Source: a virus
Direction: 5' to 3' (one strand)
IMG/VR virus record: IMGVR_UViG_3300046170_000301
DNA length: 64,000 nt
Shown: one piece after another, positions 5,660 to 24,916 of the stretch
Layout: each line of letters starts with the position of its first letter
How positions within the stretch are numbered: position 1 is the stretch's first letter
The notes under the pieces: model-generated
Database searches by the model: none
The model's input: only the letters and a program-made list of their open reading frames with translations
What the model was told of the DNA's origin: nothing
Made by a program: the position numbers and the translations under genes

Positions 5660-5733
5660 TGGGAGATACTGGATTTGAACCTAAGACTTCTTGGTTCATA
5701 GCCAAGCACTCTGTACAACTGAGTTAAGAGAGT
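5660..5733 (-). pseudogene. Chimeric pseudo-tRNA (Arg-ACG-like 5' body with ATG anticodon, unrelated Val-like 3' end)
   Basis: D and anticodon arms pair (CTTGG-CTATGAA-CCAAG); T-stem (TTAGG/CCAGT) and acceptor (ACTCTCT/ATCTCCC) do not. Confidence 0.7.
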
Positions 5734-6581: not shown

Positions 6582-6645
6582 AATATAGTATCAATTATTA
6601 TTAATAAGAGTAACAATTTACCCGTATGTTACTTGGAACAACCAA

Positions 6646-6717
6646 CAGGCGTACCTGGACTCGAACCAGGAATAAGGGTTTAGAAGACCCGTGTGATATC
6701 CGTTTCACCATACGCCC
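6646..6717 (-). tRNA. tRNA-Arg(TCT)
   Basis: GGGCGTA...GGGT-CTTCTAA-ACCC...CCTGGTTCGAGTCCAGG-TACGCCT. Confidence 0.95.
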
Positions 6718-6805
6718 ATAAGAGTCTTCCCTGTTTGAGCATCGTTGAGAGGCTTGGGAGAGGTAGGACTTACACTAAGTTTGGACCTCCGTTGCTAATG
6801 AAGTT

Positions 6806-10919: not shown

Positions 10920-13208
10920 CTAAATTTTACAGGATTCACAATCATCTTCTTGTTCGACAGAACAATCTTCTAATAATTTATTTAAACTTTCTTTGACATC
11001 AACCTCATCAGTTTTGAGGTCATTTGTGTTTTGATAGTAGGATGTTTTCCAACCGTATTTGTATGTAGTTAAAAAATCATTTGCCATCACCGACACTGGA
11101 ACTTCATTGTCAGGGTAGTTCTCTGGATTGTAACTCCAGTTACCAGATATAGGCCTGATCAAAGAATTTTTGCATCACAGATATAATTTTAATATATCCT
11201 TCATTATCTTTCATATCCCAAAGAATTGTATAGTTATTCTTTAGATGTCCGTAGGAGGGAACAATCTGTTTAAGAGGCCCTTTCTTTGATTTTTAACGGA
11301 CAAGTAGTCTCTAGGTGGTTCAATTCCGTTTGTTGCGTTTGACACAATGGAACTGCTCTCCGAAGGCATTTGTGCGGACAGAGTGCTGTGCCTGAGTCCG
11401 TGTTCCAAGATAGATGACCTAAGACTATTCCAATCATAGTTGAGTTTGTTTGGTACGATCTCATCTACTTCAGTCTTGTAAGTATCAATCGGTAATATAC
11501 CACCAGAATATTTTGTACGATTAAAATATTCACACTTACCTTTTTCTTTTGCAAGTTGATTAGATGACTTTAACAGATAATATTGAAATGCTTCAGTAAG
11601 ATCATGAGTCAATTGCCATGCAGATGAATCACCATAGTGTTCTCCGTTCTTTGCCAAGTAGTGTGCAAGACCTATAAAACCAATACCAAGAGATCTTCTT
11701 TTTTTAGTTGAATTCTCTGCGGCCTTTACTGGATATCCCTGATAGTCAATTAACTCCTCCAGGCCCCTTACAGATAGGTCACAGAGGTCTTCTAATTCCT
11801 CTAGTCTATTAATCTTTCCAACATTAATTGCGGATAAAATACAGAGAGCGATCTCTCCATCAGGGTCATCAATGTGTGAGATTGGTTTTGTGGGTAAAGT
11901 AATTTCTTGACAAAGATTACTCATGCTCACTTTATCTATAAAAGATGAATGTGAGTTGCAATGATCAATATTCATCAGATAAAGACGACCAGTTTCTGCA
12001 CGTTCCTTAAGAATGTTTAAGATTAATTCTTGAGCATCTACTTGTGACTTAGGAACTGATTCATCTAACTCATATTGAGTGTATAGTTCATCAAAAGATT
12101 CCGTACCAAAACTATCATAAAGCCCTGGCACATCATGAGGAGAAAAAAGTGTGATCTTCTCGTTTGTAATAAACCTCTCATAAAATAATTTACTCAATTG
12201 AATACTATAGTCTAGTTTCCTTACACGATTATCTTCTGTTCCTTTATTGTTCTTGAGTACAATTATGTCTTCTATTTCTTTGTGCCAGATTGGGAAGTGG
12301 ACAGTCGCTGATCCACCTCTAATGCCGTTCTGAGTGCAACATCTGACAGTACTTTCAAACTTTTTGAGGAAAGGTACAACGCCTGTGTGCTGTACTTCTC
12401 CACCCCTGATTTTACTGTTGATGCCACGGATGCGGCCTGCGTTGATACCGATACCCGCCCTTTGTGCAACATATTTGCCGATAGCCATATCAGAACTAAA
12501 GATGCTATCGAGGGTGTCATCAGAATCAACAAGAACACAGCTAGCAAATTGTCTAAGAGGAGTTCGTACCCCGCCCATGATAGGCGTGGGGATGTTGATT
12601 CGGTGTTTCGAGATTGCTTGGTAGTATCTGGTGACATAATCGAGTCTTGTTTCTTGTGGATATTCTGCAAATATAGTCATCGCAATCACAAGATACATGA
12701 ACTGAGGAGTTTCATAAACTTGCCCAGAACTTCTATCTTGCACAAGATATTTATCAACTACTTGTCTGAAGTCCAGCATATGTAAATAGATAATCCCTGA
12801 TCATGGTCAATGAAGCATTAATTTTGCATTCTTCATCTGAATATTTACAAGATTCATATCATAAACATCTAGAATCATGATATAGCAGCAATGCATCAAA
12901 ACATGTTGGCAGTTCCTTTCCTCCAAATGTCATATACTTTTACGAATAGAGAATAAAAGTAATCTTGCTGCAACAAATTGATAGTTAGGATGGTCAAGTG
13001 AAATAAGGTCGCTTGCTGAACGAATAAGAATCTCTTGGATTTCTTCTGTTGTAATACCGTCATAAAACTGAATACCAGAATTCATTTCTACTTGAGAAGC
13101 AGAAACTCCACCAATACCTTCACATGCTTCGTCTACCATTTTGTGGATTTTGTCAAGATTTAGCGGTTCAACGGCACCGCTTCTCTTTTTTACGTTGATA
13201 CTGCTCAT
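10920..13208 (-). CDS. nrdA: Ribonucleotide reductase class Ia alpha subunit (several apparent indels, garbled 12780-12930)
   Basis: ATP-cone VKKR, QFASCVL, SNLCQEI, MPSESSS, KTSYY, C-terminal CESCKI. Confidence 0.93.
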
Positions 13209-14200
13209 ACTTTTTTCCATTCGATTAACTTTAACTTTGCTTCTAATCCTTGATAAGTATTGTATTTTACCACACTTTGAACATCGTGTCCAGATAAAAC
13301 CATGTCGTTGACATCTTTATCTGTTATAGAACTTGGCCATATCACTACTGGATAACCTTTGTCGATTGTCTTTGATATTTTATCAACGATTTCTCGGTTT
13401 CTTGGTTCGTTATCAAATACGAATGTAAATTGATAATTGAAAGTGCTAAGGTCAACATCGCTACCGCACATAGCAATACTGTTCCTAATGAACATGGAGT
13501 CAAAGGGTCCTTCGGTAACATAAATCTGTTTCTCCAAATCAACTCTATCCCAACCAAACACTTTTTGTTTGGCATCATCTAACATGACACTGATGTATCT
13601 TAGCTTTGCTTTAGGGGCAAGTGAACGTCCTTGATATCCGAACATCTTACCATCTTTATCCCTCATTGGGATTATAATACGAGGACTATCTTTCCTCAAA
13701 GTATCAAATACTTTCTTTTGAGAATTAGTCCACTCTTTAAATTTAGGACAATAGAAAAAGTAATCTAACTCTTTAATTTTTCTTGATTCTAAGTATTGTC
13801 TGGCTGGGTGAGAAGTATTTAGATTTGATATTGATTCCAAGTTTACATCTCTTTTTGTTTTAACAAAAACAGGTGGTTTGAAATTGAAATCTGGATTCTT
13901 TGTTTGTGTTCCTTTGCCAGTCAGACCTTCTTTGTATCTTTCCAACACATACTGGTCATGAAGATGTGGACAATTATCCTTCAAGAAATTGGTAAATGTC
14001 CTTCCAACTCCACAGTTATGGCATTTGAAAACAAAGTCATTTTTTATCTTAAACAGATATCCCCGAGTTTTATCTTTTCTTTTTTTACTGTCTCCACAAT
14101 ATGGACACCTGAAATTATAAAGGGAATCTTTTTTTCTTGAGAATTTTAGTAATTGAGGTGATATAAGATTGATGTATTTAACATCAATGTAACTCATCAT
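13205..14200 (-). CDS. g61: DNA primase (T4 gp61)
   Basis: CPYCGDS..CHNCG zinc finger; TOPRIM EGPFDS, FDNEPRN, KDVND. Confidence 0.95.
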   Translation of the reverse strand: MMSYIDVKYINLISPQLLKFSRKKDSLYNFRCPYCGDSKKRKDKTRGYLFKIKNDFVFKCHNCGVGRTFTNFLKDNCPHLHDQYVLERYKEGLTGKGTQTKNPDFNFKPPVFVKTKRDVNLESISNLNTSHPARQYLESRKIKELDYFFYCPKFKEWTNSQKKVFDTLRKDSPRIIIPMRDKDGKMFGYQGRSLAPKAKLRYISVMLDDAKQKVFGWDRVDLEKQIYVTEGPFDSMFIRNSIAMCGSDVDLSTFNYQFTFVFDNEPRNREIVDKISKTIDKGYPVVIWPSSITDKDVNDMVLSGHDVQSVVKYNTYQGLEAKLKLIEWKKV

Positions 14201-14607
14201 CTAGTCTGTTCAATACGTTCCTCTATGGTAACACCCCTGTCGCCTACTGTCAATAGGTCTCCGAAGAACTGTGCTGAACCGATGATGAAGATGGCCGCCG
14301 AGGCAATGCCAATGGTCATCCAGCGAAAGTTATAAAACTCTCCCATCTTTTCTTCAAGAGATTTAATCTTTTCTTTTATATCTTTAATATATTCAAGAAG
14401 ACCTTCATCTGATTTATTACATTGGTCTATTCTTTCTTCATGTTTAGCAAGAATAGCAGCAATATTATTGTTGGTTTCACTGATTTTATTTACAGCATTA
14501 TCCAACTTATCCAACATCTCCCTTGAAAGTTCTTCGTATATCTCAACTCTTTGAGCAAGAAGTTCAAAAGATTTATCCATTTCAGATTTTACTGCTTTAC
14601 CAAACAT
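14197..14607 (-). CDS. Coiled-coil protein with C-terminal TM helix
   Basis: Heptad pattern then WMTIGIASAAIFIIG; contains an internal TTGACA-N17-TACCAT promoter ahead of primase. Confidence 0.7.
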   Translation of the reverse strand: MFGKAVKSEMDKSFELLAQRVEIYEELSREMLDKLDNAVNKISETNNNIAAILAKHEERIDQCNKSDEGLLEYIKDIKEKIKSLEEKMGEFYNFRWMTIGIASAAIFIIGSAQFFGDLLTVGDRGVTIEERIEQTR

Positions 14608-14626
14608 TTATTTTCCTCGTAAGTTC

Positions 14627-15346
14627 TCAAACATTACGAACTGAAAAATCAAGAACTTGCTGGAAAGTAGCAGCATCCTTGTTTAACATATAACGGAACC
14701 TATCTTTATTATCATCATTCAATTGAGAATAAGCAGCAGCAATTCTTTTTGCTGAAAAGTTGTCGAGGTTCTGTTGTGTTCCATCACCAAAAGTAATCTT
14801 AGCAAAGTTTGCTTCTCCTCTTGGGTCAAGTTCAGATGTAGCAACTTGTAGTGCTACTTCAAGAGCATCAACTCCAGTGTTTTCGTTAATCATGTCACCC
14901 TCCATTTCGTAAGAATTTTTTAGTGATGCTTTTTTCTGTTGTTCGGATGCTTTCTTTTTAAAATCAGCAAGACGAGCTTTCATTAAAGTATCCATCTCTT
15001 TAGTCTTGTCCTGCATTTTTGCTTTAGCTTCATCTCTTTTTTTCTGAAGCTCTTTAGACCTCTTGAGCTTTTTTTGTTGCCCAATAGATTTTTGTGCTCT
15101 CTCGGTTTCTGAAGGAGCAGCTTCTAGAATTTGTTTGTCTAGTTCTTCTTTCATTTTTTTACGTCTGGAAATACGAGAGAGTAGATTTTTTGCCCCCTTT
15201 GTTCTGCCGTCAATATAATCTTTATTATTTTTTTTATATTTACGACGCTGTTTTGTATTAACAAATACAAATGCTGGTGGAAGTGCAAGTCCACTTCCAT
15301 CACCTGCTATCATTTCTTTTAAATTAGATTCAGTTTCTTTAGACAT
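14627..15346 (-). CDS. Hypothetical charged protein
   Basis: 239-aa ORF within the operon. Confidence 0.7.
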   Translation of the reverse strand: MSKETESNLKEMIAGDGSGLALPPAFVFVNTKQRRKYKKNNKDYIDGRTKGAKNLLSRISRRKKMKEELDKQILEAAPSETERAQKSIGQQKKLKRSKELQKKRDEAKAKMQDKTKEMDTLMKARLADFKKKASEQQKKASLKNSYEMEGDMINENTGVDALEVALQVATSELDPRGEANFAKITFGDGTQQNLDNFSAKRIAAAYSQLNDDNKDRFRYMLNKDAATFQQVLDFSVRNV

Positions 15347-15675
15347 TCTTCATCAATTTGGTTGTTTAAAGCCGAGGGCAATCTATCGAGAAATAATAAA
15401 AATGCTTTCAAAACTGGCCAATAGTTAGACTCTATTTTGAAAAATAAAAGAGGTGTGGTAGCTTCATCAAATACATTATATAATAATATAATATGATTCA
15501 AAATAAGATTCACCTTCAATTCACCTTGGGTTTCATAACGACGAAATAATCTTTTAATGTATTTAAAAGTATTTAGGTCTTCTTGAAAGTCATCATATGT
15601 TACGCAAGTAGGGTTATCATAATTTTTCATAGCGAAAAGAACCCAATTGTCCTTGTTCAATTCATCAAAATTCAT
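15319..15675 (-). CDS. Conserved T4-like hypothetical protein
   Basis: FAMKNYDNP.C...F.EDL..FKYIKRL...LILNHII motif typical of T4-like phages. Confidence 0.75.
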   Translation of the reverse strand: MNFDELNKDNWVLFAMKNYDNPTCVTYDDFQEDLNTFKYIKRLFRRYETQGELKVNLILNHIILLYNVFDEATTPLLFFKIESNYWPVLKAFLLFLDRLPSALNNQIDEECLKKLNLI

Positions 15676-15681
15676 TGATTA

Positions 15682-16272
15682 TCAAGCAACGGTCACAGTC
15701 AATATTGCTACATCAGAAATAACTTCTGGAGCACCAGCAGTTGAGGTAAGTTTGACACGATACTTTCTACCGTCATCATCAGTAGTTAATCCAGTAAGAG
15801 ATAGGGAAGCAGTTGTTTCTCCAGAAATAGTTTTCCAACGAGTTCCTGTTGCTTTCTGTGATTGCCACTGATAAACAATATCTCCAAGGTCAGGGTCATC
15901 AGCAGCAGTTACAGAGAATGTAACGGCTCCAACAGCATCATCCGTTGCTTGGTCTGTAGGTTGAACAGTAATATTAATTACAGAGGTTGCATCTGCTGCT
16001 ATAGCATCATCATCTTGAGTTTCCTGAGCATTAGGCTCTGGGTCTGCAATGATTATTAGATGCTCTGCTTTATGTCTGGTATGTCCTTCACAATCTGTAT
16101 AAGTGTAATAAGACCACCATCCAGGAGCATTAAGACCACGCTCTTTATTCTCTTCAAGAGCTGCTTCTGTATTGTCAATAAAGACAATTGTTTTTGATTG
16201 AGATGATTCAACTACACCACGTCCAGCTTTAGTTACGTTAGTGTTTGAGTCATCTTTCCCGTATAGAGACAT
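15682..16272 (-). CDS. Virion protein with C-terminal Ig-like domain
   Basis: ITVQP..VTFSVTA..YQWQ..LSLTGL..DDG.KYRV; TATAAATA at 16308-16315. Confidence 0.75.
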   Translation of the reverse strand: MSLYGKDDSNTNVTKAGRGVVESSQSKTIVFIDNTEAALEENKERGLNAPGWWSYYTYTDCEGHTRHKAEHLIIIADPEPNAQETQDDDAIAADATSVINITVQPTDQATDDAVGAVTFSVTAADDPDLGDIVYQWQSQKATGTRWKTISGETTASLSLTGLTTDDDGRKYRVKLTSTAGAPEVISDVAILTVTVA

Positions 16273-16342
16273 TCAACCTCTCCAAAAATTTACTTTTTAC
16301 CTACAAATATTTATAAAAATAGGGGAGTTTCCTCCCCGTAAA

Positions 16343-16510
16343 TTATCTCTTCTTTTTTACTTTACTTACTAATGCTCTCAAAAAACTTCTAACGACTTGA
16401 AAAACACCCTTTTCTTTCAACCATGGAATGTAAGACAATGCTTCGGATATTGCCCATAAAGCAGCAAATACAATTGCGGCTCCATGAGAAATCAAAAAGC
16501 ACTCAATCAT
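16343..16510 (-). CDS. Small holin-like membrane protein (55 aa)
   Basis: MIECFLISHGAAIVFAALWAISEALSYIPWLKEKGVFQVVRSFLRALVSKVKKKR; TM segment plus basic tail; hairpin downstream. Confidence 0.55.
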   Translation of the reverse strand: MIECFLISHGAAIVFAALWAISEALSYIPWLKEKGVFQVVRSFLRALVSKVKKKR

Positions 16511-16686
16511 TTCTCAGAGCAGTTTTTGAGAAGAGCAACTCTTACGCTAGTTGAAATGAGGTCATCGATATCATTATCGGTTGTCTGAACATAGCGGTCA
16601 AGAAGGTCAACTACGAGAAGCTTGGTGTTGCAAGAGTTGAGGAATTTAAAAAGAATTGGTCTAAAAAGTTGTACTAAATTGTCCAT
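16507..16686 (-). CDS. Small hypothetical protein (59 aa)
   Basis: MDNLVQLFRPILF...TDNDIDD...; AAGGAG SD; ATGA coupling. Confidence 0.7.
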   Translation of the reverse strand: MDNLVQLFRPILFKFLNSCNTKLLVVDLLDRYVQTTDNDIDDLISTSVRVALLKNCSEK

Positions 16687-16834
16687 AATTTATTCTCCTT
16701 AAGGTAAGTTGGTCGTGGGTTTCCCTAATCTATTTATGTAAATTGGGGTCTTTCAACTGAGGAGACATTGTTTTAGATTGTCCCTTCATTGCTTTCTTAA
16801 GATACTTTCTTGTTTTCTTTTTATTTTCCATATC

Positions 16835-16917
16835 GTCAGGACCACCGTCTTCTAATTTAGGCATCACCTCAACGGTAGGTTCTGACTTCTTTACTTTTTT
16901 TCCTCTTCAATCTCCTT
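16835..16917 (-). promoter_or_regulatory. Putative -1 programmed ribosomal frameshift signal
   Basis: AAGGAG, 11 nt, A_AAA_AAG (16900-16894), TAA, 13-bp interrupted stem starting 7 nt downstream. Confidence 0.7.
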
Positions 16918-17772
16918 ACGAAGTTCTGCTTCCTCTTTCATTTTTTTCTTCTTAGAAATAATCTTGGAAACTTTCTTACGACGATTTAGAAGATACTTAT
17001 CGGACTTATCGTGGTCACCATCATTGTCAATATCCTTATCTTCTTTCCCTACTGGGTCAAGTGCTTCATTGGTCTTTTTCTTTTCTGGAAGACCTTTATG
17101 CTTAGTAGAAGCAAACTTCTCTGCTTCCTTTCCAGTCATTGACTTAGCAGCTTTATCAACTTCTTTAGAACCACCTCTCATTTCGCCTTTCTTTTTAGCG
17201 TGAACCATTCCCATGAAGCGTTGTTGTGCTTTACTTACTGACTTCTCTTGAAGTTCTTCGCCATCATGCTCGACTTCATCACCAGCTTTCACACAGTTAT
17301 CAACTCTCTTACCACCTTTTATCTTGGTTCCCATTTGCTTGTATCCTTTCCAACAAGCTTTACCATCTAAACCTTTCTTCTTGTCTGCTTCAAATACATA
17401 AGTGAAACCATCAAGTTCAAACTCGTAGGTTTCTTTCTTCATATCCTTATCTTTCTTCTCACAGCGGGAGCACCCCTTCCCGCCGCAGTAAGAGCAGGTA
17501 TCACACGACTCCTTCGTAACCAGTTTCGTGGTGTCCTTAATCTCTGCTCCGTGTGATTGTTTAATACCAGAACCAGTCCGTAAATCAACAGCAGGGTCAG
17601 GAGATGAAGCGTTTGCTTTTGGGTCTTTTTTGGAAGTGTCATCTTGCTTCTTTTTAGACTTGTCTAGCGTAGGAATACCCTCTTCGCCTAAACGTTTTAC
17701 AGTTCCTTCAATGAGTGCTTTTGAGAACTCGTCATTATAATGAACAGAGTTTACTGGTTTCTGTTTTTCCAT
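16891..17772 (-). CDS. Lys/Glu-rich modular protein, putative internal head protein; -1 frame extends it to 16730
   Basis: Modules [38 protein letters not shown] separated by Glu-ending linkers. Confidence 0.75.
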
Positions 17773-17798
17773 TATTGTTAATAATACTTTTGCTTTTT

Positions 17799-18020
17799 CT
17801 ATTTAGTATTATTAACATTTATCTCACGTAAATCAGTTACCCAGGCACGAAACATTTCTCCCTTTTCTGTAACGGCAATTACATAGTTAACACCAGGACG
17901 AATAATCTTTCCCTTTTGTTTTGTGTTAACATCTAAAACAACATCGCCTTCTTGAAATATTTCTTTTCTAATATATCTTTCTTTAGTTGCTTCCTTTCTG
18001 AATTGCCTGAAATCTTTCAT
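17799..18020 (-). CDS. Small SH3/KOW-like protein
   Basis: [26 protein letters not shown]; resembles the C-terminal domain of cyanophage cytidylyltransferase-like proteins (recall). Confidence 0.6.
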
Positions 18021-18052
18021 TAACCTTATTTTAATATAAGGTATTTATTCAA

Positions 18053-18139
18053 CGGAGAGTAGGCGAATCGAACGCCTAAGGGCTTTAACACCTCGACGCT
18101 TTTCAAGAGCGTTTCCGTCGCCAATCGGATTGTCCCTCT
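18053..18139 (-). tRNA. tRNA-Ser(TGA), acceptor stem with two mismatches
   Basis: ACGCT-CTTGAAA-AGCGT arm, long variable arm, AGGCG-TTCGATT-CGCCT; 5' AGAGGGA vs 3' ACTCTCC. Confidence 0.8.
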
Positions 18140-18526
18140 TTATAATTTATCTCTATATGGTTCATATTTTTTACCAAGAGATAGAGTAGATTTAGATTGA
18201 ACTTCTGTAGTTGGAATAAAATATATATCTCCTAACTCAGTTACTACAAGTAAATAATCACAGGAATTATTATCAAATTTGTGAATTGTATTGCCAGAAC
18301 GATTAGCTCTAATAGACCTAAGTTGGACACAATAGTTAGAATTTTGCAAGGTCCTTGTAGATTTTACTTGAACTTTTTTTAAATTGCCATCAACTTCACA
18401 AACTAAATCATAACTTTGATTATCAACCAAAGGAACTGAAACATTATAACCTTTTTTAGTTAGAAAAGCAATAGCGTAAGATAATCCTACAGTTCCTTGA
18501 GATACTGGAGTGAGATTGGCGAACAT
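18140..18526 (-). CDS. PD-(D/E)XK homing endonuclease (I-Ssp6803I / PDDEXK_5-like), free-standing
   Basis: G..G...AI..L.K.GY.VS.P..DNQ.YDLV.E....KKVQVKS...DYL.V...Y.IP. Confidence 0.8.
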   Translation of the reverse strand: MFANLTPVSQGTVGLSYAIAFLTKKGYNVSVPLVDNQSYDLVCEVDGNLKKVQVKSTRTLQNSNYCVQLRSIRANRSGNTIHKFDNNSCDYLLVVTELGDIYFIPTTEVQSKSTLSLGKKYEPYRDKL

Positions 18527-18531
18527 ATAAT

Positions 18532-18563
18532 ACCTGTATATTATACAGTTTATTTATACAGGT
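18532..18563 (-). promoter_or_regulatory. Late promoter TATAAATA embedded in a hairpin that covers the endonuclease SD
   Basis: ACCTGTATA...TATACAGGT 9-bp stem; promoter 18558-18551; AGGT SD 5 nt before ATG 18526. Confidence 0.75.
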
Positions 18564-18589
18564 TCCGTCGCCAATCGGCTTGACTCTCC
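18558..18589 (-). pseudogene. Orphan 5' half of tRNA-Ser
   Basis: GGAGAGTCAAGCCGATTGGCGACGGAACCTGT, 23/27 identical to the 5' end of the downstream tRNA. Confidence 0.8.
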
Positions 18590-18615
18590 AAAAAATGGAG
18601 CAATGCTTCAACGTA

Positions 18616-18936
18616 TTATTTATTTTTTATGTCTTTAACTTGTTTAGAACTCCAAACAGCAAAAGCAATGACTGCAAAATAAAATAAATAATCGTCAATC
18701 ATTACTAGAAAAAAAAATAAAGAACCACCATAACGAATGTATTCTGGAACTGGAAGTTTTTTAAAAAACCAACGAATTTGTTTTTCAAATACAAAATACA
18801 ATAGTGCTAATGCTGTTACTACAAATTCACTATAAGGAACAACAAAATACAATGAGATAATTACAAAGATTGTGAAGTAATGTCTCTCTGGTATTTTTGA
18901 AATTAAAGAGACATACTTCTTAATTAATTTTTTCAA
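18616..18936 (-). CDS. Multi-pass membrane protein
   Basis: 106 aa, long hydrophobic stretches. Confidence 0.65.
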   Translation of the reverse strand: MKKLIKKYVSLISKIPERHYFTIFVIISLYFVVPYSEFVVTALALLYFVFEKQIRWFFKKLPVPEYIRYGGSLFFFLVMIDDYLFYFAVIAFAVWSSKQVKDIKNK

Positions 18937-19347
18937 TTAACGGTCATCCTTCGCACGATTCTCGGAATAGTATACATCAAAATCACCACCAGGATAGCGC
19001 TTCATAAGTTTTTTAACATTACCTTCAATGACTTCATCAAAAGAAACATTAAGAGCAACACACGCTTGAGCAACATACCACATCACATCACCAAGTTCAA
19101 TAATAAGGTGTTCCCGATTATCATCATTCCAAGGCTTACCCTGAAAAATCATTTTCTTGATAATCTCAAGAAACTCTCCACCTTCAGCATTGATACCAAC
19201 ACCAGCAGTAAGAAGACGTTCAATGTTAGCACCTTTACCGTCAAGTTCTACCATCCTATCAGACAGTGCTACGAAATCTTTAGAGGCATCACTAGTCACA
19301 GCATCAACGAACTCTTGATACCGTTCAAAATCTACATGTTCTGTCAT
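18937..19347 (-). CDS. mazG: MazG-type nucleotide pyrophosphohydrolase
   Basis: GINAEGGEFLEIIKK, ELGDVMWY, N..KL..RYP. Confidence 0.92.
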   Translation of the reverse strand: MTEHVDFERYQEFVDAVTSDASKDFVALSDRMVELDGKGANIERLLTAGVGINAEGGEFLEIIKKMIFQGKPWNDDNREHLIIELGDVMWYVAQACVALNVSFDEVIEGNVKKLMKRYPGGDFDVYYSENRAKDDR

Positions 19348-19349
19348 AG

Positions 19350-20744
19350 TTAGATAATAAATTGGGAAAATTTGTTTAATCGTTTTTGCCTTTCGGAAAC
19401 TTCCTCCAGGACTTCAAAGGTTTCTTCTGGTGCTTCTGTAACCAATTCAGCACCTTCCGAATCCTCTACATTATACAGCTTCATCTTTGCCCTGTCAATG
19501 CCCACAGTAAATCTCTTGTGGAAGATGGTATCGTTATATCGGTTCTTGAGCTGTTTGACCATGATACGACCAGACTGTTCAAGTTCCTCAGTAGCGATAA
19601 GAGCAAACATAAAGTCAGCAGTAGCGGGAAGACCAAAAGACTCAGAAGTGTCGGTAAGGTCAACGTCACTATTGCCAAAACCACTCCTAGTTGTTTGAGT
19701 TGCTGAAACAATAGGAATGTCGTTTTCAACAGCAAGACCTCTAAGTTCTTCAGCAATTGCTTTAACATAGCTGTAGGAGTTTACAACGTGACCTTTGTAT
19801 CTAGAAGAAGCACAGATGTTTAGATAATCAATAAAGATAATATCTGGTCTAAAATCTTTCTTCAAACTAAGGTCACTCAGCAATGCTTTAAAATGTTCAG
19901 CATGTGCTGCTGCCGTTGGATACTCTTTGATGATAAGTTTACCTTGAGTTTTCCTACCAATCTCTTTAACTCTTGAAGTAAAGATTGTTTCTGGAATTGA
20001 ATTAATATCTTTAATATTAACATTAAGAAGATTAGCATCAATCCTTTCAGCAATCTTTTCTTCCGACATCTCAAGTGTAATGTAAAGAACATTTTTTCCT
20101 TGAGATATACAAAAAGCAGCACAATGACACATGAAAAGAGATTTGCCAACACCAGTTCCAGCAAGAGCAACATTAAGAGTTTTGTTTGGCAAACCACCTT
20201 TAGTAATCAAATTAAACTTTTCCAAATCAAATGGAATCTTTGATTCTTCTTTGTGGTAATACTCGTAACGTTGTTCTACATTATCAACATAATCGTGACC
20301 TATGTATTCATCGAACGATACTGCCAGGGCCTCTTGTAATATCGAGGGGATAGCACCTCTCGATATTTTTTCATCGCCTTCTCCATCTGCGATTTTGATA
20401 GATTGGAGTAGGGCATTATAGATTGCTCTGTCTTTACACCACTTCTCTGTGCTGTTAACAAGCCAATCTTTGTCAATCCACTCTTCAGTGAACTCTTGGA
20501 TTTTCTTAGCGCCTTCTTTATATACGTCTTCAGTAAGGTCATTTCTTTCTTGTAAAGATAAAATCAAAACTTCCTTTGTTGGAAGTTTATCGTATTTTGT
20601 AGAGAAGTCCTGTATTTCTTCGTACAGGACTCGTTCGGTATAATCCTGAAAATATTCAGGTTTAAGAAAAGGAACTACCTTTCTATAATATTCCTCATTA
20701 CATAAAAGATTTCTAAGTATTGTTGTTTCAATCTTCTCCTTCAT
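19350..20744 (-). CDS. g41: Replicative DnaB-like helicase (gp41)
   Basis: [30 protein letters not shown]. Confidence 0.95.
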
Positions 20745-21760
20745 CTACTGCTCCGTAAAGAAATTCTCTTTTTACTTGTTTTTCTAACTGATTCACAATA
20801 TCTTCAGTAAAATATTTTTCAGGATTTTTTAGGATTTCTTTGCCGTAAATCTTTTTACCATCAACTTCATACCTTCCCGCGGCGACTTTCCATATCTTAG
20901 CACGTTCTGCCAGTTCCAGCAACCCATAATACTTCTCAAGTCCACGGGTGTCGAAGAACAATCTGACTTCTGCTTTGGAACCTTCACGGGTCAAACGGGA
21001 CTTCTTCGCCTCACATTTAATAATGTTTCCGACCAAATCGGTTCCGTCCTTTTCTTTCTTTTTAGATAAGAAGATAATAGTGGAAGCAGAATACTTAAGA
21101 CCACTACCACCACCCATTTCTTTTGTAGGGTGATAAGCGCCGATGACATCATAGGTGTGGTTGGTAACAATCATAGGTATGTTAGCTTTACCAAGTTTCA
21201 ACGTCAAGATTCTGAAAACAGATTTAACAAGTTGAGCTTTAGTCATGTCACGAACGTTTTTATCATTAGAAGCATCTTCAACTTCTTTGTTCGTAGCAAG
21301 CATACCAAGGGAATCGAGAACAAACATAAGAGGTTTTCTTTCCTCTTTTGGTGTCTCCATATACTTATCTATAATACGAACTGATTGTGTTCTGAACTCT
21401 TCAATCGTAGCAACTGGAAAGATAATCATTCGTTTTGAATCAATGCCACGACTTTCAATCATCTTCTTACTGATGGCAGATTCAGTTTCAAAATAAATTA
21501 CTCCCCCCCTCTGGATTAGCATTGAGGAAGCTACGAACAACACTAAGACAGAAAAAAGTTTTACCAGTTCCAGATTCTCCAGCGAGAGCTGTGATTTTAT
21601 TGGATGGAATTCCACCATACAAACTACCACTAACGATAGCATTGAACATATAACTTCCAGTATCAACAAAAGATTCCACATCTCCAGCAGAAATGCCATC
21701 AGATACGAACGAGGCAAACTCATTTTTACTCTCTTTAATTACTTGTGATAGAAATTCCAT
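20728..21760 (-). CDS. uvsX: RecA-like recombinase UvsX (frameshift in a G7 run at about 21503-21509)
   Basis: [25 protein letters not shown]; removing one G restores the frame. Confidence 0.92.
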
Positions 21761-21765
21761 AGTTG

Positions 21766-24258
21766 TTATAAGAAACTTAATATTGATATTTTTTTCTCGA
21801 TATCCCATCCGATACATTCTAAGACATTTTTGAGTGGGCCATAAAATGACTTCTCAAACTGTGTCTTATAGTCCACATACTTATCGAGTTTGAATTCTTT
21901 TGGCAATGTGCCGAAGAATGAGATTACATTCTCTTGGAATGGATTAGGGGTTTTGAGGTAGATAAACTTAATTTTCTCTCCTTCTTGGATAAGAGCGTAC
22001 TTATGAGTAAGTCCAAGACCCCGAATGTAGTAATTATACAGTAATGCACCTCGGACATGAATAGGTGTGCCCTTCTGATAAATGTATGTATTACTTTTAT
22101 ACTTGTCGAGACAATTAACACCTCTGGGGAAAGAAATATCCAAGTAATCTTGGAGTTTAGTTTCTTCTCTAACTTTACCAATGTATTCAATCACATCTTC
22201 GTTTGTCTGATTGATAATAATTGTATAAGCTTCAAGAAGTTTGTTCTTAAAAAATGCTGGAGTAGATGACCTTGCCGTTTCCATACCACAGATTTTCATC
22301 TTTGGTTCGTGGTAACGAACTCCTTCGCTATCCCAGACATTCAATATATATCTCTTCTTGGCAGTCCAAATACCTTTTGAAGCAATATTCTCTCGCTTCA
22401 TTTTCATCTTTTGGTCATAAGCATTGACATAATCTGCCAGTTCTTGGTAGGACTTTTCAATATAGTTCTCGATTTCAGATGAACATATCTTGTCAAGAAA
22501 GTTAACAATTTTTTCTTCTGTTACATCTTTACCACCAAAAATTTTATCTACAAGAGGACCAAGATTGAGATACAATGAATCTGTATCGGAAGCAACAACA
22601 TAATCTGTATCACCAGTTTTAAGTATGTTATTAATATACTTATTCATCTTATTAGCAATCCATCGAATAGAAAGCTGACCAGATGTTGTAATTGCTTCAG
22701 CAATTTCTAACTTATAGTATCGAAAATGCTCATTGCCAATAGCACCATAAGCTGAGTTGAGTTGAATCTTTCTTGCCATCTGAATATTATTACAGCGAGC
22801 AATCTCTTTCTTCAACTCTGTTGTTGGGGTTTCTTCATACTGCTTCTTGGCAGCAATCATTTTCTTTTTGTATACCACACGTTCTTTATAGATTTTTTCC
22901 ATCAACTTAGGAAGAAATCCTTGCTTAGTGGTATCATAAAATGTTCCATTAGCACAAAGAGTTTGACCACGAAGGTCTGAAAGGTTTTCTTTTTTATTAA
23001 GAAGCCTCTCAATATTTGCTGATGGATGTTTGTGGTCAAGCAACGTCTCGGGTGAGAGATTGTATTGCATGATTAAATGTGGGTATAGGGAGTTCAAATC
23101 AAAAGATACTACCCAATTATACATACCAGGAATAGGTTCTTTTACATATGCTCCAGAATATTTGTTATCTTTACGACTTTCTTTCTTGGGTGGAATAGCG
23201 ATTTTTTGTTTTGCCAGATAGACGTAAATGATATTATCCCACATACGCACCTGAGAATAAACATCTTCATAGTTTACCTTAGCGTCGTATGCCATAGTGA
23301 TGGCAAGTTCAATAAGTTTCATCTTGTCATCTAACTGGTCAACCAATCGAACGTCGATAATATTATATTCTACAAATTTCTGCCAATCATTTGTATAGAA
23401 ATCTTTAAATGTATCATGCTCGCTATGGTCCAATTTCTGTGACCCAAGTTCAACAAAAGCAATATGATCCAAACGATATGATTCTTGATTTGTGTAAGTA
23501 AACTTACGATACAATTCAAGATAATCCAAGATGGCAATACCCATAATGTCATAAGCAATATTCTTACGACCTTTGATATAGATTTCTCTGCTGAGAATTT
23601 TCTTCCATGGAGATAGCATTTCTGCTTCTTTAGTTCCAATCACTCTTTCAATACGCCGAAAAATATAAGGCATATCGAATAGTTGAACGTTCCATCCAGT
23701 AATAACATCAGGGAAGTTTTCCATCCACCAGTGAATGAAAGCTTTGAGCATTCCAATCTCTGTGTTGAAGTGCATGTAATGAACATCATCATGTTTGTTA
23801 TCAAACGGACGAGTTCCAAAAACAGTGATAGTGTTCATGTAACTATCCTTGACGCTGATAAGAAGGATTTCCTGGTCGGCAGATTCGATATCAGGAAATC
23901 CATTCTCAGCACCAGTTTCAATATCAAGAGTAAAAATTCTGATTTTGTTTTTATCAAACTTGATTTCATCTTCAGGATACTCTTCAAAAATATACTGACT
24001 CGGATATCTGGTTTGACCACAGATTTCAAAATCTTCTAACTCTCCATGCTCTTCAACAGCTTTTTTGGCATCACGAATTGTTCCCTGTTTTACTGGACGA
24101 ACATATCTACCATCAAGTGTTTTCCAATCAGTTGATTTTGCCGAAGGCAAATACAGTGTAGGATTAAATTTAACTTTGTCTTTAAAAGGAAGACCATTTT
24201 CGTAACCACGAACAAGAACGTTTTTTCCAGATTGTTCAACACTTGTGTAAAACTTCAT
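21766..24258 (-). CDS. g43: Family B DNA polymerase (gp43)
   Basis: [32 protein letters not shown]. Confidence 0.97.
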
Positions 24259-24539
24259 TCGTCAATTTCAATAAATTCATCATCAGGTTCTTGCTCTTCA
24301 TTGATAAGTGTCGTGTATTGAGCAAGAATAAAAGTATTAGGTTCGGCAATAACACTAATGTTTGCTGACCTAACTATAAGTTCCTTATCAGAAGAGTGCT
24401 CTGGGAAAGGACCCATACAGGTCCCTTCAATCTCATGTGGATATTTTAGCACACAGTCTGGTTCTCCAAACTCGGCATCTGGGATTTCTTCAACGTCCGA
24501 AATTAACCAGTGCCCATCAAACTTAATCAGTTTTATCAT
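24255..24539 (-). CDS. Conserved hypothetical protein (Sm-like)
   Basis: GEPDCVLKYP motif; coupled to g43. Confidence 0.7.
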   Translation of the reverse strand: MIKLIKFDGHWLISDVEEIPDAEFGEPDCVLKYPHEIEGTCMGPFPEHSSDKELIVRSANISVIAEPNTFILAQYTTLINEEQEPDDEFIEIDE

Positions 24540-24916
24540 ACTACTTCTGGGTTAACTACTTTGTCAATTTCTTCTTGTTGTTGTTTGACATTTTCTGTTT
24601 CGTTTGCCTGCTTTACTTGCTCAACCTTTGCAACATATGCTTGATCAAGTCCAGCATCTGGAGTTCCAATAGCAACAAAAGAATCGTAGGGAATCCTAAA
24701 TTGAGAATCAATTGCATAAGGACACCAGCGACTGAACTTTACTTGAAGGTCTTGTTGTGGGTTATCCTGATTGTTTAGTTGAACAAGTTCCAAAACATAG
24801 GGGTGAATCATGACTAGACATACGCCTTTCTTGTCTTCACCTTCTCCATCATAAGCTTCTTTGAGTTCGCAAATAATCTGTTCTCCAGATTTTAGAATTA
24901 CAATAGACGAGTTCAT
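24536..24916 (-). CDS. Conserved hypothetical protein (Sm-like)
   Basis: Start reassigned to MNSSIVILKSGEQII with GGAGG SD. Confidence 0.75.
   Translation of the reverse strand: MNSSIVILKSGEQIICELKEAYDGEGEDKKGVCLVMIHPYVLELVQLNNQDNPQQDLQVKFSRWCPYAIDSQFRIPYDSFVAIGTPDAGLDQAYVAKVEQVKQANETENVKQQQEEIDKVVNPEVV

Follow-up and report, generated by a model that had tools for sequence, protein, structure and literature searches.

A free-standing I-Ssp6803I-type endonuclease gene beside tRNA-Ser(UGA) in a T4-like cyanophage, with a half-tRNA that is probably the scar of one-sided homing

I-Ssp6803I acts as a tetramer and recognizes a 23-bp pseudo-palindrome; it has been treated as a rare, intron-borne and mainly cyanobacterial type of homing endonuclease (PMC3384342). 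Among better-known phage systems, the endonuclease genes of T4 have a late promoter plus a hairpin upstream, and one-sided homing in T4 leads to illegitimate repair at microhomologies (PMC2988022). Homologs of SegB are widely associated with tRNA genes (PMC13096335). The PDDEXK_5 domain itself has been placed among defence-linked domains in a cyanophage study (PMC12284385), and PHROGs files the PDDEXK_5 phage family under “unknown function”. We found no description in the literature of a free-standing, tRNA-linked branch of the I-Ssp6803I type. The gene analyzed here lies in a 64,000-nt stretch of viral DNA (IMG/VR record IMGVR_UViG_3300046170_000301; “the window” hereafter) from a T4-like cyanomyovirus, whose best GenBank matches are Synechococcus myoviruses at ~75% identity. 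Our main conclusion, which we hold to be probable, is that a free-standing homing endonuclease gene sits beside tRNA-Ser(UGA) in this phage, and that the half-tRNA and the chimeric tRNA flanking it are the scar of a one-sided, illegitimate repair of a break made by the nuclease.

The elements that a sequence-only reading of this DNA had named, namely a tRNA-Ser 5' half, a promoter-like box, a 128-aa ORF, a tRNA-Ser(TGA) and a 16-bp direct repeat, were all recovered on the minus strand (Table 1). The two copies of the repeat are spaced 450 bp apart, and their similarity extends to 26 nt at 88% identity. The same reading had held that the locus offers no room for a group I intron, and this stands: there are 31 nt between the orphan half and the ATG of the endonuclease ORF and 0 nt between its stop codon and the tRNA, and no intron family was found by Rfam in 17900-18750 at E up to 10. 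An intron-encoded endonuclease of the group I kind was rejected on this ground and also because the 3' strand of the downstream anticodon stem is unable to pair with the CCTGT of the orphan half.

Table 1. Features of the endonuclease/tRNA-Ser locus and its neighbours (positions in the window)
Feature	Position	Strand	Remarks
gp41-type helicase	19350-20744	minus	neighbour of the endonuclease/tRNA-Ser locus
MazG	18937-19347	minus	neighbour of the endonuclease/tRNA-Ser locus
106-aa membrane-like ORF, PHROG 1248 (unknown function, E 1e-47)	18616-18936	minus	between MazG and the tRNA leader
native 5' leader of resident tRNA-Ser, with terminator-like hairpin (18596-18610) and T-run	18590-18622	minus	90.8% identity to the L088 leader
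orphan tRNA-Ser 5' half, 32 nt	18558-18589	minus	acceptor 5' strand GGAGAGT, D arm, anticodon-stem 5' strand CCTGT
16-bp exact direct repeat, upstream copy, D-arm region	18563-18578	minus	repeat comparison
TATAAATA box, T4-late-promoter-like	18551-18558	minus	first T is the final base of the orphan half
palindrome/hairpin just 5' of the start codon	18534-18548	minus	kept at the same place in relatives, with a different stem sequence
endonuclease ORF, 128 aa plus stop	18140-18526	minus	I-Ssp6803I (PDDEXK_5) family, free-standing
chimeric tRNA-Ser(UGA)	18053-18139	minus	first base directly after the TAA stop of the endonuclease ORF
16-bp exact direct repeat, downstream copy, D-arm region	18113-18128	minus	repeat comparison

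Several of these elements merit comment. The leader hairpin was detected on the plus strand of the same bases, and the T-run comes after it on the minus strand. The TATAAATA box is kept at the same position upstream of the endonuclease gene when relatives are aligned, and it is not enriched in the window as a whole (9 found, 5.6 expected). By analogy with T4, it may act as a late promoter, which would imply late expression of the endonuclease. The hairpin just before the start codon is a candidate translational control element or operator. In the window (18530-18560, minus strand), in L008, in L010 and in other relatives, this hairpin takes the form CWGT-N7-ACWG, similar to the presumed target stem-loop, in which two half-sites enclose a 7-nt loop; with seven occurrences of the pattern in the window against 4.1 expected, the likeness is only a lead. 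An operator role like that known for I-TevI is one possibility for the hairpin, and a relic is another.

The surroundings of the locus show further variation. The 106-aa ORF is missing in the related IMG/VR contig L088, where MazG directly precedes the tRNA leader, and a homolog lies immediately 5' of tRNA-Ser in L169; this ORF is a second indel at the MazG/tRNA-Ser junction. Elsewhere in the window, Rfam places an abiF RNA (RF03085) at 6725-6760 on the minus strand (41.2 bits against a cut-off of 37), adjoining a tRNA-Arg at 6645-6718. A partial tRNA match at 5667-5727 on the minus strand (29.7 bits, model positions 7-64), beside tRNA-Trp, received no ARAGORN call and is probably a pseudo-tRNA.

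The protein had been read as a nuclease of the PDDEXK_5, or I-Ssp6803I, type, and profile search, sequence match and predicted fold all bear this out. The 128-aa product matches PF11645 in Pfam with 80.1 bits (cut-off 26.1; E 2.1e-22). I-Ssp6803I (PDB 2OST), its only relative of solved structure, is recovered at E 1.5e-10 from the single sequence and at E 3.9e-17 from a 22-sequence profile, and the YDL...VQVK motif aligns with the same motif in 2OST. Among the 22 relatives, D40 and Q53 of this catalytic motif are invariant and K55 is nearly so. An AlphaFold2 model, built from an alignment of the window protein and IMG/VR sequences only, has a pLDDT of 91.2; its top Foldseek matches are chains of 2OST (TM 0.80/0.70, rmsd 2.3 Å, 30% identity), with Hjc resolvases and restriction enzymes ranked next and far behind. 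Homologs at 73-86% identity occur in 15 IMG/VR contigs, and all 13 that span the whole gene encode 128 aa. Pairwise dN/dS values of 0.02-0.17 across three lineages indicate that the protein is maintained by purifying selection. Judged by sequence and by the modelled fold, the gene thus appears to be a free-standing homing endonuclease gene of the I-Ssp6803I family.

In its close relatives, this gene has a simple and uniform setting. It is free-standing between an upstream ORF and tRNA-Ser in all 15, the order being the end of the upstream ORF, a TA(T)AAATAA box, the hairpin, the endonuclease ORF and tRNA-Ser(UGA). In 13/13 of the contigs that reach the 3' end of the gene, the TAA stop is followed without a gap by base 1 of a complete tRNA-Ser(UGA). 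The normal unit in T4-like cyanophages is therefore a TATAAATA box, a hairpin and an ORF whose stop abuts the first base of the tRNA. Because this unit is common to all three endonuclease lineages, the layout in the window is derived rather than ancestral; on the same evidence, we rejected an intron, a split tRNA and an ancestral intermediate between intron-borne and free-standing forms.

The prediction that relatives without the insert would carry a single CCTGT tRNA-Ser at the same site was borne out. L088 is 90-95% identical to the window over 11910-24727. At the site, it has the MazG stop, the same leader with hairpin and T-run, and a single intact tRNA-Ser with a CCTGT/ACAGT stem, with no endonuclease gene. 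The phages S-PM2 and S-RIM32 likewise have a single CCTGT tRNA-Ser there and no insert. Two further, independent filled/empty pairs were found: L008/L043, whose flanks are 99% and 95.8% identical, and L012/L065, whose upstream flank is 97.6% identical; the empty member of each (L043 and L065) is again CCTGT. Thus, presence and absence of the gene are polymorphic at one site in near-identical genomes (window/L088, L008/L043, L012/L065). In the latter two pairs the whole tRNA differs between the members, which indicates that the gene was co-converted with its tRNA. The acceptor stem of the L088 tRNA is unlike those of both window copies, so the resident allele of the window's ancestor is a reconstruction and its history could be more complex; a later exchange between the two repeats is possible. 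A separate comparison concerns L010, whose cassette is flanked by an 8-bp direct repeat, and L129, which shares both flanks and the CCGCT tRNA, lacks the cassette and has exactly one copy of the repeat. The difference amounts to a clean deletion, or insertion, at short repeats.

The identity of the anticodon stem follows the gene closely. Occupied sites carry CCGCT/AGCGT stems, ATCGT/ACGAT in the L008 lineage, or ACGCT/AGCGT in the window, and a CCTGT/ACAGT stem was found beside the endonuclease gene in none of the close relatives whose contig includes the tRNA (15 examined). Among the matches listed for pattern-selected IMG/VR loci, the gene lies upstream of 0/79 tRNAs with a CCTGT stem and 8/111 with a CGCT stem. 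The proposed tie between the gene and a stem allele other than CCTGT consequently holds in every close relative with the tRNA on its contig and across the 79 CCTGT loci. The association is nevertheless statistically weak, given that the two allele classes come from the matches listed for a pattern, that many contigs are related and that there are about five independent gene-bearing contexts. Further, the remaining 103 of the 111 listed CGCT loci lack the gene; with the allele so common by itself, CGCT could be an ordinary polymorphism. Some of these gene-less loci retain a trace of the gene, however. In nine of them (L213, L115, L134, L151, L152, L155, L157, L181 and L186), the last 15 nt of an L010-type ORF, including the stop, stand flush against the tRNA. 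Such a remnant was left by loss of the gene or by a crossover within its tail, and it implies that a gene-bearing genome was the ancestor, or the source by conversion, of at least some CGCT alleles that lack the gene. A TAA flush against the tRNA is in itself no commoner in gene-less CGCT loci (6/53) than in CCTGT loci (5/50).

Against this background, the two tRNA pieces of the window can be assigned to their sources. The final base of the orphan half is also the final base of the anticodon-stem 5' strand (tRNA position 31); the loop should begin there, and it is there that the cassette starts. It is preceded by the same leader and terminator-like hairpin as the intact tRNA of L088, and so it is not a chance match. 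Its GGAGAGT forms 7/7 pairs with ACTCTCC, the 3' acceptor strand of the downstream tRNA. That tRNA has an anticodon stem of the endonuclease-linked type (ACGCT/AGCGT), and its own 5' acceptor strand, AGAGGGA, makes only 5/7 pairs with ACTCTCC, with mismatches A1·C72 and A7·A66. Its 5' part matches a GGAGGGA-type donor allele that is present in L178, L197 and L219, whereas its 3' part matches the resident allele, GGAGAGT/ACTCTCC, a combination often seen with the CCTGT stem. These facts identify the downstream tRNA as a chimera, and the two mismatches mark it as damaged rather than designed.

The comparison with related tRNAs underlines how unusual both pieces are. Seven of seven acceptor pairs form in 214/216 related copies, the window and L113 being the two with 5/7. 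G1 is found in 54/56 distinct related sequences, and the downstream tRNA has A1; T11 is found in 56/56, and the orphan half has G11, which suggests decay. Default ARAGORN missed the downstream tRNA, which was called at a relaxed setting, and this is weak evidence of damage because four other relatives among the 56 distinct sequences were also missed. In Rfam, the downstream tRNA scores 37 bits on the tRNA-Sec model, below the cut-off of that model; the intact tRNAs of L088 and L008 also fall below cut-offs, which makes these scores no guide to the defect. A recombinant of the two copies joined at the repeat would be a fully paired tRNA that default ARAGORN accepts. The tRNA-Ser of L113 (minus strand), which lacks an endonuclease gene on its 5' side, looks like a decaying copy: it starts with A1 and shows numerous G-to-A and C-to-T changes. 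The scar in the window is unique among the ~80 endonuclease-family loci compared, with a flanking tRNA fragment in 0/15 close and 0/65 distant loci. When the exact junction of the scar was sought in contigs from IMG/VR and the JGI metagenomes, nothing but unrelated chance matches came up.

We propose the following route to this arrangement. The DNA that encodes an anticodon stem-loop is a natural inverted repeat. The endonuclease, made late in infection, would act as a symmetric oligomer that binds the pseudo-palindromic DNA encoding the anticodon stem-loop of the common CCTGT/ACAGT allele, and it would cut that allele in or near the anticodon loop. Repair of the break from a co-infecting, gene-bearing phage would copy in the gene together with a tRNA allele changed on both arms of the stem; the change from CCTGT to CCGCT indeed alters the two arms symmetrically. 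The acquired stem (CCGCT or ACGCT/AGCGT) would presumably be uncuttable. In the ancestor of the window, the donor would have lacked homology upstream of the cassette, as endonuclease-bearing donors have a different upstream ORF. The right end may then have recombined inside the tRNA, and the left end, for want of a related upstream flank, may have been joined illegitimately at 1-2 nt of microhomology (T or GT) with the start of the TATAAATA box. Such a join would produce both the scar, in which the 5' half of the resident tRNA stops at tRNA position 31, and a chimeric tRNA whose acceptor stem is mismatched. We infer the target and the cut site from the allele patterns and from one junction; cleavage itself, the position of the cut and the immunity of the new allele are likewise predictions drawn from sequence.

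Other accounts of the half-tRNA deserve consideration. The sequence-only reading had envisaged an att-like strategy, in which the cassette would, by design and at every homing event, disrupt the resident tRNA and deliver a new 5' half in its place. The anatomy of the window is compatible with this, and mitochondrial mobile ORFs do bring a foreign gene terminus that displaces the native one (PMC3630166). The relatives speak against it, however: no tRNA fragment lies at the end of the gene away from the tRNA in any of the 15 close and 65 distant ones, L008/L043 and L012/L065 exchange the whole tRNA and leave no remnant, and the replacement in the window has a damaged acceptor stem. We therefore regard such a strategy as quite improbable and have set this part of the earlier proposal aside; the half-tRNA is best read as a one-off scar. 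A nuclease need not have been involved at all if illegitimate or unequal recombination, during replication of the recombination-dependent T4 type, joined a resident tRNA-Ser to a foreign endonuclease-tRNA module. Recombination is frequent in T4-like phages, the crossover on the right falls within tRNA homology, the left junction shares only 1-2 nt, and the nuclease cut is itself an inference. Against this account, the left junction falls precisely where stem meets loop in the allele that all empty sites carry, and an enzyme of the I-Ssp6803I type would be expected to cut in this region. This account is unlikely in our view, although it deserves more credit than an att-like strategy.

It might also be asked whether the two tRNA pieces still cooperate, either through a 450-bp deletion across the 16-bp repeat in part of the population or through joining at the RNA level. 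The fully paired recombinant, which default ARAGORN accepts although it misses the present downstream copy, would fit this idea. Against it, no mechanism for such joining is known, the locus has no space for an intron, and the G11 of the orphan half, at an otherwise invariant position, suggests decay; we give cooperation very little weight. Slighter still is the chance that two co-occurring phage variants were merged in a chimeric contig. The arrangement is indeed unique in the collections searched, but a merge through the shared repeat would yield a single hybrid tRNA and no duplication, and the junction, placed 5 nt past the repeat, brings together sequences that no variant seen has side by side. 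A scar of one-sided repair thus remains our preferred explanation.

The tRNA association reaches beyond the cyanophages. Among 65 distant IMG/VR relatives (L248-L313, 35-48% identity), a tRNA gene lies within 1.5 kb in 63 and within 150 nt in 60; the neighbours are mostly tRNA-Tyr and tRNA-Ser on the same strand. An excess of tRNA-Tyr(GTA) and tRNA-Ser was noted next to these PDDEXK_5 relatives, and both are tRNAs with long variable arms. GenBank members lie inside tRNA arrays in Vibrio Thalassavirus, Bacillus phage BCP78, a Felixounavirus and a 735-kb phage. Gene 5.3 of T7 is a remote homolog (33% identity over residues 22-120, E 6e-5), and as T7 has no tRNA genes, the link fails for the most distant members. 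In Synechococcus phage DSL-LC02 (L314, 847-1286), a different ORF that carries an HNH endonuclease annotation (annotated length 129 aa, with Cys and His motifs and no Pfam match at E 0.01), preceded by a TATAAATA box, lies directly upstream of, and runs into, a tRNA-Ser(UGA) of the CCTGT allele. A second nuclease type thus seems to occupy this niche.

These observations establish no new principle, in that intronless homing and tRNA-linked endonucleases were already known. What is new is the I-Ssp6803I-type nuclease as a free-standing, tRNA-linked phage homing gene. A free-standing branch of this type stands beside tRNA genes in many phage lineages, and its cyanophage members are tied to particular anticodon-stem alleles. 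One genome keeps a natural scar that predicts both the target and the approximate cut site, which provides a testable target for a compact, palindrome-reading nuclease; if read as a scar, it is also a natural example of illegitimate one-sided homing. Further, homing linked to tRNA genes suggests a reason for the mosaic nature of phage tRNA genes. More speculatively, and with somewhat less than even confidence, we suggest that the phage PDDEXK_5 proteins form a large, unannotated branch of free-standing homing enzymes that are specialised for tRNA genes and exploit the inverted repeat of the anticodon stem-loop. Since a tRNA stem has to change in compensatory pairs, every escape change would affect both half-sites of a symmetric enzyme, and nuclease and tRNA alleles would therefore chase each other, driving turnover of tRNA alleles in phages. 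On this view, the window would offer a first natural record of homing that failed on one side, with the position of the cut preserved in it, and the leader hairpin might be an autorepression operator, as in I-TevI.

The closest described enzyme is I-Ssp6803I. The window protein shares its family, fold and YDL...VQVK motif (2OST), and both are associated with tRNA genes. I-Ssp6803I is encoded in an intron of the Synechocystis tRNA-fMet gene, whereas the window gene is a free-standing phage gene with no group I intron and with Ser(UGA) as its presumed target. The known target of I-Ssp6803I is the anticodon region, and the allele pattern in the window points to a target of the same kind. The window gene is adjacent to the tRNA gene that it presumably targets, whereas I-Ssp6803I is encoded within its own target gene; a variant tRNA allele would confer immunity in the window, a role that the intron plays for I-Ssp6803I by splitting the site. 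In its genetics, the locus resembles the intronless homing of T4 SegB and its T-even counterparts, where the gene is also free-standing in the tRNA region of a T4-like phage and break repair co-converts flanking markers. SegB, however, is a GIY-YIG enzyme and that of the window is a PD-(D/E)XK enzyme, and the presumed cut site in the window is only ~30-40 nt from the gene, in the adjacent tRNA. The late promoter and upstream hairpin of T4 endonuclease genes (PMC2988022) are matched in layout, the promoter function in the window being putative.

Two systems resemble the scar itself. In mitochondrial mobile ORFs (Allomyces atp6; Glomus atp6, atp9, cox2 and nad3), an endonuclease gene travels with a foreign piece of its target gene, and the displaced native piece is left as a remnant next to the insert, as in the window (PMC3630166). 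Those ORFs affect protein genes, duplicate 3' ends and recur in the same layout; in the window, the 5' end of an RNA gene is duplicated, the event is a one-off among ~80 relatives, and the hybrid gene is damaged. One-sided homing in T4 (PMC2988022) shares with the window the one-sided homology, the microhomology junction and the gain of DNA without full homology. It was observed in engineered crosses with an intron, whereas the window would be a natural product of the same process, made by a free-standing gene and kept in a phage genome.
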